DNA from: a virus
Taxonomy: Duplodnaviria > Caudoviricetes
DNA: 64,000 bases
Virus record (IMG/VR): IMGVR_UViG_3300028591_000070
Span: 192,001-256,000 of that record
Direction: 5' to 3' (one strand)
This document shows positions 10,030 through 17,056 of the stretch, piece by piece. Below the pieces are notes generated by a model. That model had not been told where the DNA came from, did no database searches, and saw only the letters and a list, made by a program, of their open reading frames with translations. Made by a program: the position numbers and the translations under genes. Each line of letters begins with the position of its first letter. Position 1 is the stretch's first letter.

Positions 10030-10806
10030 TTAACTTTTGCTATAATTATCTTTAAGTCTATTTACAAACTCTAATTCAAGCATTTCAATTGCATTGAGTT
10101 CTTTTTTAGATTTTGCAATATTCTTGAGATATTGCTCTTTAATGTGGCGATTACGAGGCTTCTTAAGACACAACTCTAAATAAAGAAGTGCCTTAAACAA
10201 TAGGGAATTATTGCCAACCACATCTTCATAGTCTTTTAAGATTTCCTGAATAATCTCATAAGGTGTAGACCTTAATCTAACAGAAGGATCACTATTCTCT
10301 TCACCATATAGTGTTTGTGCTCCAAATCTCTGCTGGTCATCAATAAAACTATATTCAGTATCTCCATTATTAAATGAAAAATCCAAAGAAAGAGTCTTAT
10401 CCTCATTCTTTGGACGATATAATACTTCAATAATCTTATAATTCAGATAACCTGCAAATGAAGCACCTACAAAAAACTCATAATTTATAACATAACAGCT
10501 CAAAAAAGCTGTAGTTGCTTGCAAAGCTTTCTCATAAACTTCTTCTGGCTCTAAGAAAGTTTTACTTTTGAGTTTCTGTAAGATTAGTGATTTTGAATAG
10601 CTGAGTAATACATCAAATAAAGCTGTCCATGCTTTAGAACGATCTTCAGGAGTATTAGCCATAAAATAATCATATTGATAAGCAAAACACTGTTGTTCTG
10701 TAGGAGGCTTTGTTTTAATGTCATTGATTAATGTTTTAGTATAAACTTTTTTAGCCAGCTTTTTAAGGTCTGGCTTTGGACTCTCAAAATAATTTACTAC
10801 ATCCAT
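10030..10806 (-). CDS. putative phage sigma factor (divergent, candidate late sigma)
   Basis: Helical region-2-like segment (EEVYEKALQA..AFL...SFAGYLNYKI..VLY) followed by TLSLD; no clear region 4. Confidence 0.5.
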   Translation of the reverse strand: MDVVNYFESPKPDLKKLAKKVYTKTLINDIKTKPPTEQQCFAYQYDYFMANTPEDRSKAWTALFDVLLSYSKSLILQKLKSKTFLEPEEVYEKALQATTAFLSCYVINYEFFVGASFAGYLNYKIIEVLYRPKNEDKTLSLDFSFNNGDTEYSFIDDQQRFGAQTLYGEENSDPSVRLRSTPYEIIQEILKDYEDVVGNNSLLFKALLYLELCLKKPRNRHIKEQYLKNIAKSKKELNAIEMLELEFVNRLKDNYSKS

Positions 10807-10836: not shown

Positions 10837-11055
10837 TTATTTAACCTGAATAATCTCTAATTTATAGTCTGGATGCTCTTTTGAAGCCTTATCTAGTGTC
10901 CGCTGAGCTTGAGAATATGTATAATTTCTTCCACCTAATATAGAATTATTGGCCTTATTTTTTACTAACCATATATGTGTTTCACCTAATGGACCTAAAT
11001 CATCTAATCCAAATAGGCTATCTAACTCATCTTGCTTAATTGATACGTTATCCAT
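10837..11055 (-). CDS. hypothetical protein
   Basis: 72 aa ORF in coupled small-gene operon. Confidence 0.65.
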   Translation of the reverse strand: MDNVSIKQDELDSLFGLDDLGPLGETHIWLVKNKANNSILGGRNYTYSQAQRTLDKASKEHPDYKLEIIQVK

Positions 11056-11281
11056 TTCTGTTTAAATTAGTTTCCATAAGTAGTTTACTAGCTTTTATTT
11101 TAATTCCCAAACTATAATAAGGATTTACATTAATATATTGACAAGCTTCTTCGGTTGTTAACTTAAACTCATTCATTATGAATTCAACTGTTTCTCGATA
11201 GCACTGTCGGTAAACTTCTATTTCTTTAGGTGTCATGCTAACTCCATCTATGAGTATATCCATGTTTTTTCTTGCATTCAT
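11048..11281 (-). CDS. small protein, 'F.LT.EEA..Y' family member 1
   Basis: IMNEFKLTTEEACQY. Confidence 0.7.
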   Translation of the reverse strand: MNARKNMDILIDGVSMTPKEIEVYRQCYRETVEFIMNEFKLTTEEACQYINVNPYYSLGIKIKASKLLMETNLNRNG

Positions 11282-11468
11282 CTTCTCGTTCTTTGCGTTT
11301 TATAGCTACTTCTAATCGAGCATTTTGTCTAACCTGTATACCATAGTCACGATTCATTTCAAAATATTTTGTTGCTTCTTCAGGAGTCAAACCAAATTCT
11401 TTTTGAATAGACTCAATTACCAACATATAATGTTTATACAAAATATCTTTGTCTAATACTGCAATCAT
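11238..11468 (-). CDS. small protein, 'F.LT.EEA..Y' family member 2
   Basis: IQKEFGLTPEEATKY. Confidence 0.7.
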   Translation of the reverse strand: MIAVLDKDILYKHYMLVIESIQKEFGLTPEEATKYFEMNRDYGIQVRQNARLEVAIKRKEREDECKKKHGYTHRWS

Positions 11469-11713
11469 ATATTATGATACCATTTATCTAAAGGAATTCT
11501 AGAAGCTCCATAATGTTTATCTACAAAATCTGCCCAAGAACGTTGTTTTACCATAGGCTCATAGTTTAATTGCTTAAAATAAGTAAGAGCTTCATTTTTT
11601 GTTAAATCAAATTTTTTCTGTAATTTAGAAACTACATATGATTTATGCTGGTCGTAAACTTTTTTATGTCCATCATCTAAATCTTTTAGAGAGACTGTCT
11701 TATTAGTTATCAT
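11465..11713 (-). CDS. small protein, 'F.LT.EEA..Y' family member 3
   Basis: LQKKFDLTKNEALTY. Confidence 0.7.
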   Translation of the reverse strand: MITNKTVSLKDLDDGHKKVYDQHKSYVVSKLQKKFDLTKNEALTYFKQLNYEPMVKQRSWADFVDKHYGASRIPLDKWYHNI

Positions 11714-11840
11714 AATTCCATAAGAGGATAACTACAAAAATTCCTAAAAAAGGATGACCACAACAACATAAAATTGCGCCTAAAAGAAATGCTAAACAGT
11801 TACTGAAAAATGCGTTGTCATTATCATTATTCTTTTTCAT
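11703..11840 (-). CDS. small membrane protein (45 aa, not in ORF track)
   Basis: MKKNNDNDNAFFSNCLAFLLGAILCCCGHPFLGIFVVILLWNYDN fills the gap in the operon. Confidence 0.6.
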   Translation of the reverse strand: MKKNNDNDNAFFSNCLAFLLGAILCCCGHPFLGIFVVILLWNYDN

Positions 11841-12057
11841 TATTATTCTCTTTTAATTGTTTTTCCCAAATCTCTTCATCAGAAGGTTTAATCTCATTTT
11901 CTTCTACAAGCATATCGAAGTATTTTTCAGCTTCATCATCCTGTAATGAATGTTGCTCCTTGAGTGAAGAAATCGCCACTTGTTCCAAACCAGTATCGAT
12001 ATCTAACTTGAAGACATCCTTGAAATCCTGGTTGCTTACACTTGTCTTCTTCATCAT
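11827..12057 (-). CDS. small protein, 'F.LT.EEA..Y' family member 4
   Basis: LKEQHSLQDDEAEKY; early promoter at 12060-12068. Confidence 0.7.
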   Translation of the reverse strand: MMKKTSVSNQDFKDVFKLDIDTGLEQVAISSLKEQHSLQDDEAEKYFDMLVEENEIKPSDEEIWEKQLKENNNEKE

Positions 12058-12068
12058 ATAGAATATAC

Positions 12069-12359
12069 CTATTTCCTTATTAATAATTCATATTTAATAC
12101 TATCCTTTAAGATAGTTGGCTTAATATTAGTGGCTCTTAATTTCTTCATATATAACAAATTAAACTTGACGTCTAAGCGCTCTATGCAAAATGAAGTGCC
12201 ATATTCATGCAAGCCAAAATTATTTACCTTTTCATTTTCTTTATTTTGTACAGCGGCATATTCCCACCATGAAAAAGGAACTACAAAAACACCAAAAGCT
12301 TGAGTCATTTTAATTATGTAATTCAATTTAATGTCAAAAACTTGTTCAATAGGCTGCAT
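12069..12359 (-). CDS. hypothetical late protein
   Basis: 96 aa ORF; ACTAAT on minus strand at 12368-12373. Confidence 0.6.
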   Translation of the reverse strand: MQPIEQVFDIKLNYIIKMTQAFGVFVVPFSWWEYAAVQNKENEKVNNFGLHEYGTSFCIERLDVKFNLLYMKKLRATNIKPTILKDSIKYELLIRK

Positions 12360-12367
12360 AGGATTTA

Positions 12368-12385
12368 ATTAGTTTTAAAACTAAT
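12368..12385. promoter_or_regulatory. divergent pair of late-type ACTAAT promoter motifs
   Basis: ATTAGT-tttaaa-ACTAAT, 6-8 nt from each ATG; motif recurs before tail, baseplate and internal-protein genes. Confidence 0.65.
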
Positions 12386-12391
12386 TAAAAC

Positions 12392-13174
12392 ATGATTTTA
12401 AATGTTATTGACTTTAATGATAATCTTAAAAAATCATATAGAAATAGATATTGCCTTTATCGAAATCTCGAATTAGGTCATGAAATTCATGTTTATAATG
12501 AGAATTCTAAATTAATGAAGGCTTGTCAAAGTACATTAACAGATGAGATGAAAAATATTTTAAAACGAACTCATTTTTCTCCAACATATGAATACTATAA
12601 ATTATTTTTAATGCAACACATAGAAGGATGGTTTACAGAAAGCGATACAATAGTCTATTCAACAAATTTAAATCCAAATAAAACTGTTCCAGGTACGATG
12701 CCAGTATATTATGACTCACAACATTGCTTACTTATACTTAATTTTTGTACTTGGATGCCAATTTATATTCATCTTGATGAAATTACAAAATTTTTTCTAA
12801 AAAAATCTTTTGATACTTTACACCTTTATATTAAAGAAGATATGTATCATAAGGGCTATATGATGAGTGAACTTTTTTGCCAAGAAATTATAGCTAAACC
12901 TTACTGCTCAAGCTATGATGAAGACCTTAAAGACCTTTGCGAAAAGTTTAATTTTATTAATATACCAGTAGACTTTGTTCATCATTCAGTTGGTAATCTT
13001 GAAACAATACCTCCTAATTATGTAAATCCTGATTCCCCAGAAAAAGTTCAAGATTATAAATCTGCAAAGCTTTGCTTAAAAAGAGACCAAGAAAATAATA
13101 TTCTTTTTATTGATAAGAGTCTTATTTATTATGATGATTTACTAAAATTTGATACTTTTAAAATTATGCCTTAA
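12392..13174 (+). CDS. putative glycosyltransferase (GT32/DXD-like)
   Basis: YEYYKLFLMQHIEGWFTESDT resembles the sDxxRlxxLxxxGGxyxDxD signature. Confidence 0.5.
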   Translation: MILNVIDFNDNLKKSYRNRYCLYRNLELGHEIHVYNENSKLMKACQSTLTDEMKNILKRTHFSPTYEYYKLFLMQHIEGWFTESDTIVYSTNLNPNKTVPGTMPVYYDSQHCLLILNFCTWMPIYIHLDEITKFFLKKSFDTLHLYIKEDMYHKGYMMSELFCQEIIAKPYCSSYDEDLKDLCEKFNFINIPVDFVHHSVGNLETIPPNYVNPDSPEKVQDYKSAKLCLKRDQENNILFIDKSLIYYDDLLKFDTFKIMP

Positions 13175-13571
13175 GAGCTATTTTTCTAAGCTTCATTTCC
13201 CAGTCTTCTTCTGGATTATAACTTATAACTGAATGTGTAACAATACGATACCACCAGTAAAAATGTTCATTTCTATCTACAGGATCACCATTTAAGGGAT
13301 TTTGATAATCATCCATTCTTCTGTGCACCCATCTTACTAAACAAACTACATTATGTGGATTATAAATATGCTCTGGCTCTTCTGAGGCTGCAAACACATG
13401 AGCATGATCAATTTGCATTTGATTTCCAGGCTTGCATTGGAAAGACTCTTTCATTGATAAACACATCTTAAATGTATCTTGACATCTATCTCTTTGGTCT
13501 ACTTTTCTTTTACATTCTTGCCAGAATGGGTCTGCATTAGACCTTCGTCCATATTCTACTTTATTAGCCAT
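13164..13571 (-). CDS. HNH-type endonuclease (late)
   Basis: Start reassigned to MANKVEY (ACTAAA upstream); QIDHAHVF...YNPHNVVCL..WVH. Confidence 0.65.
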   Translation of the reverse strand: MANKVEYGRRSNADPFWQECKRKVDQRDRCQDTFKMCLSMKESFQCKPGNQMQIDHAHVFAASEEPEHIYNPHNVVCLVRWVHRRMDDYQNPLNGDPVDRNEHFYWWYRIVTHSVISYNPEEDWEMKLRKIALKA

Positions 13572-13613
13572 ACTTAATTTAGTAGTTAATATTAACTCAA
13601 AGAGAGGTTTAAA

Positions 13614-13880
13614 GTGACACGATCTAAAGCAAATGACCTTTGGAAAAATTTTCATGATCGCTATGATTTATTTATTATAAATCCAGAAGTAGTACAAGAA
13701 CAAACTTGTGAAAAATTAAAATCAGATTTCGGCCTTTCAGATGATGAAGCCAAAAATTATTATGATATGATAAAAGACGAAGAAAACAATAAAATCATTA
13801 AAGAAGTTGAAAAAAAGGTAAGAGTAGAAGTAAAATCTACTAGTACTTTTAAGGTTGAATTTAATTATGGTAAACAATGA
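13614..13880 (+). CDS. small protein, 'F.LT.EEA..Y' family member 5
   Basis: LKSDFGLSDDEAKNY; GTTAATAT at 13585, GAGAGG SD. Confidence 0.7.
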   Translation: MTRSKANDLWKNFHDRYDLFIINPEVVQEQTCEKLKSDFGLSDDEAKNYYDMIKDEENNKIIKEVEKKVRVEVKSTSTFKVEFNYGKQ

Positions 13881-14115
13881 TAAAGATTTTCTTTCAGAGA
13901 ATTATCAAAAACACAAGAAAAATATGGTAGATGGTATTAAAAAGAAATATGGTCTAACAGATGAAGAAGCCGAAGAATATTATTATTTAGACCCTCAATA
14001 CGCTCAAGCAGCATTATTATGCGCAGCTATTGAAAATGGTCCACCTAGTTCTGAACCTAATACAGTCAATGTTACTGTGAGTCCTCAAGTTGCACAATTT
14101 TTGAAGTTGCTATAA
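13867..14115 (+). CDS. small protein, 'F.LT.EEA..Y' family member 6
   Basis: IKKKYGLTDEEAEEY; ATG at 13867. Confidence 0.7.
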   Translation: MVNNDKDFLSENYQKHKKNMVDGIKKKYGLTDEEAEEYYYLDPQYAQAALLCAAIENGPPSSEPNTVNVTVSPQVAQFLKLL

Positions 14116-14141
14116 TTTTCTAAGTATATTCTATGAAGTTG

Positions 14142-14165
14142 AAAGTGGCTTTTATGCCGCTTTTT
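14142..14165 (+). terminator. intrinsic terminator
   Basis: AAAGTGGC-tttat-GCCGCTTTTT. Confidence 0.6.
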
Positions 14166-16840: not shown

Positions 16841-17056
16841 ATGGGAAAGTATAAATTATTTGAAAGAATATTAAAAGAAAGCCTCACTCCTGAAGAAAAT
16901 GATATTTATACTGCTGGGTATAATGCTTTTTACAATGACAATGATGAATGTCCTTATGATCCTCAATTAAACATAACTGAATTTAAGATTTGGGTTTGGG
17001 GATATAAGGACGCTGAAGGTGAGCTTCTAGATAAAGAATATTTTGATTTCCAATAA
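16841..17056 (+). CDS. ribosome modulation factor (Rmf/CrpP)-like protein
   Basis: GYNA...CPY...WVWGYKDA matches the Rmf pattern GYxA...CPY...WxxGWxxA; N-terminal ILKES. Confidence 0.6.
   Translation: MGKYKLFERILKESLTPEENDIYTAGYNAFYNDNDECPYDPQLNITEFKIWVWGYKDAEGELLDKEYFDFQ

Follow-up and report, generated by a model that had tools for sequence, protein, structure and literature searches.

A variable array of small predicted hairpin proteins in a jumbo phage of probable gut Treponema, with partial likeness to Rpn tails

Six related genes at one locus

Between positions 10837 and 14115 of a 64,000-nucleotide stretch of viral DNA (hereafter the window; bases 192001-256000 of the 385,934-bp record IMGVR_UViG_3300028591_000070, Duplodnaviria, Caudoviricetes; GC 31.7%) lie six small genes whose products share a short motif. 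The initial annotation had read them as a panel of phage antitoxins imitating the C-terminal domains of Rpn nucleases. All six open reading frames (ORFs) are present. Four are on the minus strand, namely member D (11048..11236), member C (11238..11468; 76 aa, basic), member B (11465..11713; 82 aa, basic) and member A (11827..12057; 76 aa, acidic, pI 4.4), and two on the plus strand, member E (13614..13880; 88 aa) and member F (13867..14115; 82 aa, acidic, with 13867 as the likely start). The sizes of 76-88 aa first assigned to them hold for most members, but member D, whose open frame extends to 11281, probably starts at the ATG at 11236 according to the orthologue calls, which gives 62 aa.

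To delimit the family, leave-one-out hidden Markov models (HMMs) were searched against the 2005 ORFs of the genome. Each held-out member was recovered at E 1.6e-3 to 4.6e-10, and the best non-member had an E value of at least 0.01. The strict pattern occurs eight times in the genome, in the six window ORFs and at genome positions 80363 and 281836, and a ninth, weak copy lies at genome position 80560. One copy outside the window forms the C-terminal part of a 164-aa protein.

The part shared by the members is a predicted helix-cap-helix hairpin of ~28 residues. Models of members C and E place a two-helix hairpin over the motif at pLDDT 85-90, with a further helix after it (helices 7-25, 29-38 and 40-68 in member C), while the overall packing of the two models is uncertain (pTM 0.56 and 0.44, respectively). 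Only the core positions and the S/T-x-x-E capping box are conserved (I/L, F/Y, L, S/T, E, A, Y), and the exposed positions between them vary in charge and type. The net charge of the members ranges from -11 to +5, a spread more in keeping with different partners than with a single nucleic-acid ligand. A diversified family of small helical DNA-binding proteins had been offered as a fallback reading; its diversified small helical character stands, but three of the six window members (A, E and F) are acidic, against the DNA-binding part. The same short pattern was also seen in unrelated host proteins (an excisionase, ClpP and an ANTAR regulator), so that the motif alone says little. Fold searches gave best Z scores of 5.4-5.7, and no Foldseek match at E<=0.001 was obtained.

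Array dynamics and selection in related phages

A library of 1.84 billion representatives yielded 24 matches, comprising 19 small family members, four ankyrin false positives and one small protein of doubtful membership, encoded by an unrelated phage (P0023). A larger database yielded 283 homologues, none with a Pfam domain or a name. The true homologues are all small proteins, and those with known context all belong to this phage lineage. When longer proteins were searched for the family, none matched at E<=1, which is weak evidence; INPHARED phages gave no family match, scans of the members with Pfam, PHROGs, NCBIfam and PADLOC returned nothing above cut-off, and an ESM Atlas feature search gave no usable match.

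The array is anchored by an HNH-like gene (13164..13571, minus strand; 135 aa), which is 92-93% identical in the relatives and is flanked by family genes in nine related phage loci. The number of copies per locus is three in L005 and L288, five in L284 and in L003 (one truncated), six in L287 and L289, seven in L352 and eight in L007, and their order is shuffled around the conserved anchor. Member A directly follows the HNH-like gene in most relatives, and member E adjoins it in every locus covering that side. In L003 (2487-2597), the member-A orthologue ends after 36 codons, which illustrates the decay of single array members.

Orthogroups are mostly 65-95% identical across phages, compared with about 11-33% between paralogues, and their dN/dS values are 0.14-0.38, against 0.06 for the HNH-like gene and 0.04 for dUTPase. 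Each orthogroup is thus under purifying selection, and the subtypes are kept across phages. The family tree, built on 56 columns and with long branches, resolved the orthogroups but not their branching order. Variants of member E have a constant core with exchanged N- and C-terminal segments, forming a mosaic. The array is real, uncatalogued, lineage-specific, clearly bounded and under selection.

The two groups of members are each preceded by a promoter-like motif, as had been claimed from the sequence, and both motifs proved real. AGGTATATTCT, located just before member A (12060..12070, minus strand), precedes the four minus-strand members and is conserved in related phages; it has 11 genome copies versus 2-9 by chance, a modest excess, and most copies lie at gene starts. 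Between the HNH-like gene and member E (13584..13597), both strands carry overlapping AGTTAATAT motifs, which precede the two plus-strand members; this motif is enriched, with 39 genome copies versus 6-16 in shuffled sequence, and most copies stand immediately in front of genes, many of them for replication. The labels 'early' and 'middle' given to the two motifs may describe their timing.

Neighbouring genes and the probable host

Some genes within 10837-14115 lie outside the family. The conserved 72-aa gene at 10837..11055, the last of the minus-strand operon, is a non-member, and so are a hydrophobic 45-aa ORF inside the array (11703..11840, minus strand), which has a 40-aa relative in L007/L008, and a divergent gene pair at 12069..13174 (96 aa on the minus strand and 260 aa on the plus strand) associated with ACTAA motifs. 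The divergent pair is inserted in the array only here and in L289; its two genes share a palindromic ACTAA element, and a paralogue of the 260-aa protein is encoded at genome position 37260. A terminator-like hairpin (14141..14164, plus strand) lies 3' of members E and F. A protein 53% identical to the HNH-like one is encoded in a distant phage among large core-like genes (L009), with no small genes directly beside it, and the HNH-like gene behaves as a core gene and not as a mobile endonuclease.

Several further features were recorded. A conserved 258-aa protein (10030-10806, minus strand) has no family match, and its middle by eye resembles sigma region 2, which would make it a possible divergent sigma factor of the phage. 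A 71-aa gene (16841-17056, plus strand), 90% conserved in L003, weakly matches ribosome modulation factor (E 0.02). At L002:2086-3835, directly before the 164-aa hairpin-ending protein, two adjacent ORFs resemble the two parts of a split type IB topoisomerase. Other paralogue arrays are also present in the phage genome.

The length of the record, 46 tRNA calls and a tmRNA identify it as a jumbo phage. It carries a flagellin gene (L010:1442-2164; genome 330942-331664, minus strand) with 72-77% identity to Treponema flagellins, the best 80 matching records being nearly all titled Treponema or spirochaete, and an EF-Ts gene (L011:756-1532) whose best matches are from spirochaetes at about 45% identity. 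From these two matches, the host is most likely a gut or rumen Treponema. The open frame of the phage flagellin apparently lacks the N-terminal ~40 residues of complete FlaB.

Comparison with Rpn tails

RpnS, the C-terminal part of Rpn proteins (also named YhgA-like, TIGR01784 or COG5464), is a three-helix bundle in which a long first helix with four-residue repeats forms the dimer and sets the specificity (PMC10327210, Zhong et al. 2023). RpnS is toxin-specific, so that mimicry would need a panel, and stand-alone rpnS genes exist (PMC10327210). Rpn genes were found in 47 of 61 Treponema-family genomes, with up to 38 matches each, and a motive for an anti-Rpn factor therefore exists. Under the antitoxin-mimic proposal, each member would hold a different RpnL inactive by docking on its C-terminal bundle.

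The likeness to Rpn C-termini of gut anaerobes, pointed out in the initial annotation, is real for one type of tail. The family profile matched 38 of 121 Lachnospiraceae-family genomes, and Rpn-type C-termini made up 13 of its 30 best loci. Helices 2-3 of these Lachnospiraceae-type tails aligned with the family core at an HHalign probability of 97% over 30 columns (88-96% for the single subtypes), scores that are inflated and partly circular because the tails had been chosen with the phage profile. In the reciprocal direction, an HMM of the tails ranked the eight phage members first of the 2005 ORFs, at E 1e-7 to 1.5e-4, the next ORF being at 0.082. By profile comparison, helices 2-3 of the Lachnospiraceae-type Rpn tail are the best match of the family, and the likeness is confined to them.

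The remainder of the comparison argues against the mimic proposal. The G-x-x-E-G repeat helix, which in RpnS is both dimer interface and specificity element, occurs in 0 of 134 family members versus 27 of 28 Treponema tails. Within the tail types tried, namely Treponema and mixed Clostridia, the 28 Treponema Rpn tails gave HHalign probabilities of 2-3% and the motif in 0 of 28 (positive control 98.9%), and about 40 mixed-Clostridia tails gave no family match. The matching type was found in 0 of 33 Lachnospiraceae tails picked by a nuclease model, and is thus a minority type even there. Nine loci in 301 Treponema-family genomes matched this type. Two of these are Rpn-like, one being located on a short contig from a binned genome, and the other seven encode small acidic stand-alone proteins. 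The latter proteins of gut Treponema (L446-L452, e.g. L447:1432-1698) are conserved, 88-98 aa long, and bear an Rpn-tail-like three-helix domain between two very acidic tracts; they align to the Lachnospiraceae tail at 95% by HHalign, no nuclease adjoins them, and they are possible DNA mimics.

No Rpn was among the 24 matches from the 1.84-billion library, and TIGR01784 matched nothing in the 386-kb phage genome, although a mimic would not need a nuclease gene of its own; the PD-(D/E)XK gene near the array is of the PDDEXK_1 type. RpnAS (PDB 7TH0) was absent from the fold-search listings, which excludes nothing, and when member C was modelled in complex with one Rpn from Treponema bryantii the score was 0.00, which is not evidence either way.

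Taken together, the phage proteins and the Rpn tails are both small and all-helical and align over about 30 columns. Unlike RpnS, the phage family lacks the repeat-bearing first helix, an accompanying nuclease gene and a match to the tail type of the probable host, while it has extra C-terminal helices and stable orthogroups. By the defining features of RpnS, the family would not be an RpnS member. Of the proposed antitoxin-mimic panel, what stood is the likeness to tail helices 2-3 seen in the profile-profile comparison with the Lachnospiraceae type; what did not is the correspondence with Treponema tails, and the stable orthogroups do not track the hypervariable tails. The antitoxin reading is weak, because the matching tail is rare in the probable host and the first helix, on which antitoxin action depends, is absent, and we regard it as improbable.

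Alternative functions proposed for the family

Small transcription regulators, either dimerising DNA-binding half-helix-turn-helix proteins or co-factors of sigma or RNA polymerase like T4 AsiA or gp33, are likewise improbable, if with several points in their favour. A gene of the sigma-70 type is located 3.8 kb away, and four relatives have one within about 4 kb; the genome has at least three types of promoter-like motif; weak matches to excisionase and TrmB helix-turn-helix domains were obtained; and the fold search returned segments of RNA polymerase beta-prime (Z 5.4, rmsd 4.1, 65 aligned residues). However, all of these matches are at noise level, the recognition-helix residues are not conserved, and the acidity of members A, E and F does not suit the proposal. 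Moreover, the sigma gene does not adjoin the array in the L288 or GCA_016648615 locus, and the copy number varies from three to eight.

DUF3990, a member of the ADP-ribosyltransferase clan (PMC7955679), occurs in three-gene operons carried by Treponema, putatively of the toxin-antitoxin type, and the phage proteins might mimic its small partner proteins. In five of the eight Treponema genomes tried, DUF3791 scored above cut-off, and its neighbours were usually DUF3990 and another small gene. The operon of DUF3990, DUF3791 and the second small protein (L459, L464, L466, L467 and L468) recurs in Treponema and Lachnospiraceae; it may be a toxin-antitoxin or defence module. Both small proteins resemble the phage family in size and in their N-terminal hairpin (HHalign 35% and 65%; 37% for member B and 57% for member D), but scores are weak, most subtypes being below 7%, and their conserved C-terminal halves have no counterpart in the family. 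With the DUF3791 profile PF12668, the best family member reached 14.2 bits versus a cut-off of 25. Mimicry of these partner proteins is quite unlikely.

The family also resembles ANTAR domains (PF03861; EutV, NasR and AmiR) in its helix-cap-helix form, in the spacing L-T-x-x-E-A-x-x-Y and in weak fold similarity, which would fit degenerate RNA-binding antiterminators. Fold searches of member E gave NasR at Z 4.8, EutV at 4.4 and AmiR at 4.3-4.8, and four of ten Atlas rows were of this kind; the ANTAR matches as a whole had Z 4.2-4.8 and rmsd 4.5-5.0 A over 52-56 aligned residues. HHalign gave 79-88%, the best of 178 decoy windows, and subtype D2 aligned over 39 ungapped columns. In contrast, the RNA-contact residues of EutV (R142, K149, E160, Y164, R168 and M172; PMC8934654) are not conserved in the family, PF03861 matched nothing in the genome at E<=10, and a custom ANTAR HMM reached at most 17 bits, on subtype D2. 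A dual-hexaloop site was found at one of 53 terminators, where 0.16 were expected (P 0.14). Lacking the RNA-contact residues, a sensor domain and an enriched target motif, the family would not be ANTAR by the defining features of that domain, and we rate this reading as very unlikely. The single dual-hexaloop site, two hairpins with A1/G4, lies after the probable major capsid gene (genome 19826-19890), its second hairpin overlapping the stem of the terminator as in ANTAR targets, possibly by chance.

Least probable, at a remote level, is a role as immunity or partner proteins of the adjoining HNH-like nuclease: members flank its gene in every locus reaching it, with member E divergent from it and member A usually after it, but the near-invariance of the HNH-like protein leaves no need for a varied panel, its distant homologue has no small genes immediately next to it, and the shared divergent promoter site may merely be an insertion hot spot. 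Mimicry of bL12 was rejected (PF00542 matched no member; HHalign 1%), as was mimicry of EF-Ts/UBA.

Discussion

The explanation that we favour, at about even chances, is a panel of small proteins on a hairpin scaffold, each subtype of which would bind its own host or phage protein. The array would be an accessory 'accordion' in a jumbo-phage lineage of gut Treponema. Each product may be built on one two-helix hairpin, with its hydrophobic core and capping box. This hairpin would share ancestry with, or have converged on, the second half of the helix-turn-helix in some Rpn tails, and was perhaps borrowed from such a tail. It would serve for folding or docking, and subtype-specific flanks and exposed faces would select the partner. 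About ten subtypes might thus act in takeover or counter-defence, each by blocking or redirecting its own target among the host or phage proteins, and recombination would let the phages gain, lose and reorder them. The three to eight copies shuffled around a fixed HNH-like gene, the diverged paralogues and the swapped ends of member E support such a panel, and the rarity of the matching tail type in the probable host makes it likelier than a set of Rpn antitoxin copies. A narrower version, in which the array is an inhibitor panel derived from the last two helices of Rpn-type tails, each member docking a different host toxin (Rpn nucleases or the DUF3990 type), is doubtful.

Three points weigh against the binding-protein panel. 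Purifying selection and stable subtypes would equally fit conserved roles internal to the phage; the close match to the Lachnospiraceae-type tail may go beyond the sharing of a scaffold; and the probable host was assigned from two genes only.

Variable arrays of small accessory genes occur in T4-like and jumbo phages, for example at the T-even internal-protein loci. The present array is like them in having tandem small genes that are gained, lost and reordered at a fixed position, but it has no sequence relation to them and no PHROG, Pfam, NCBIfam or PADLOC match of substance. With the reported phage antitoxin mimic of ICP1 against DarTG (10.1101/2023.12.14.571748), it would share the idea that a phage gene imitates an antitoxin of the host; it differs in that three to eight diverged paralogues are present here and the cognate toxin is only putative.

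Jumbo phages of gut Treponema were not found described in our literature search. If the array were a panel of toxin inhibitors, it would be the first anti-Rpn counter-defence, as far as the literature search shows, and a multi-copy cassette of antitoxin mimics in a spirochaete phage; a member that neutralises an Rpn nuclease would be a first anti-Rpn factor and would help to address how RpnL is released. If no Rpn is neutralised, the family would be a modest case of a single helical scaffold put to use for several targets. Variable small-gene arrays are a frequent home of phage counter-defence and takeover genes, and the array described here offers about ten candidate subtypes.

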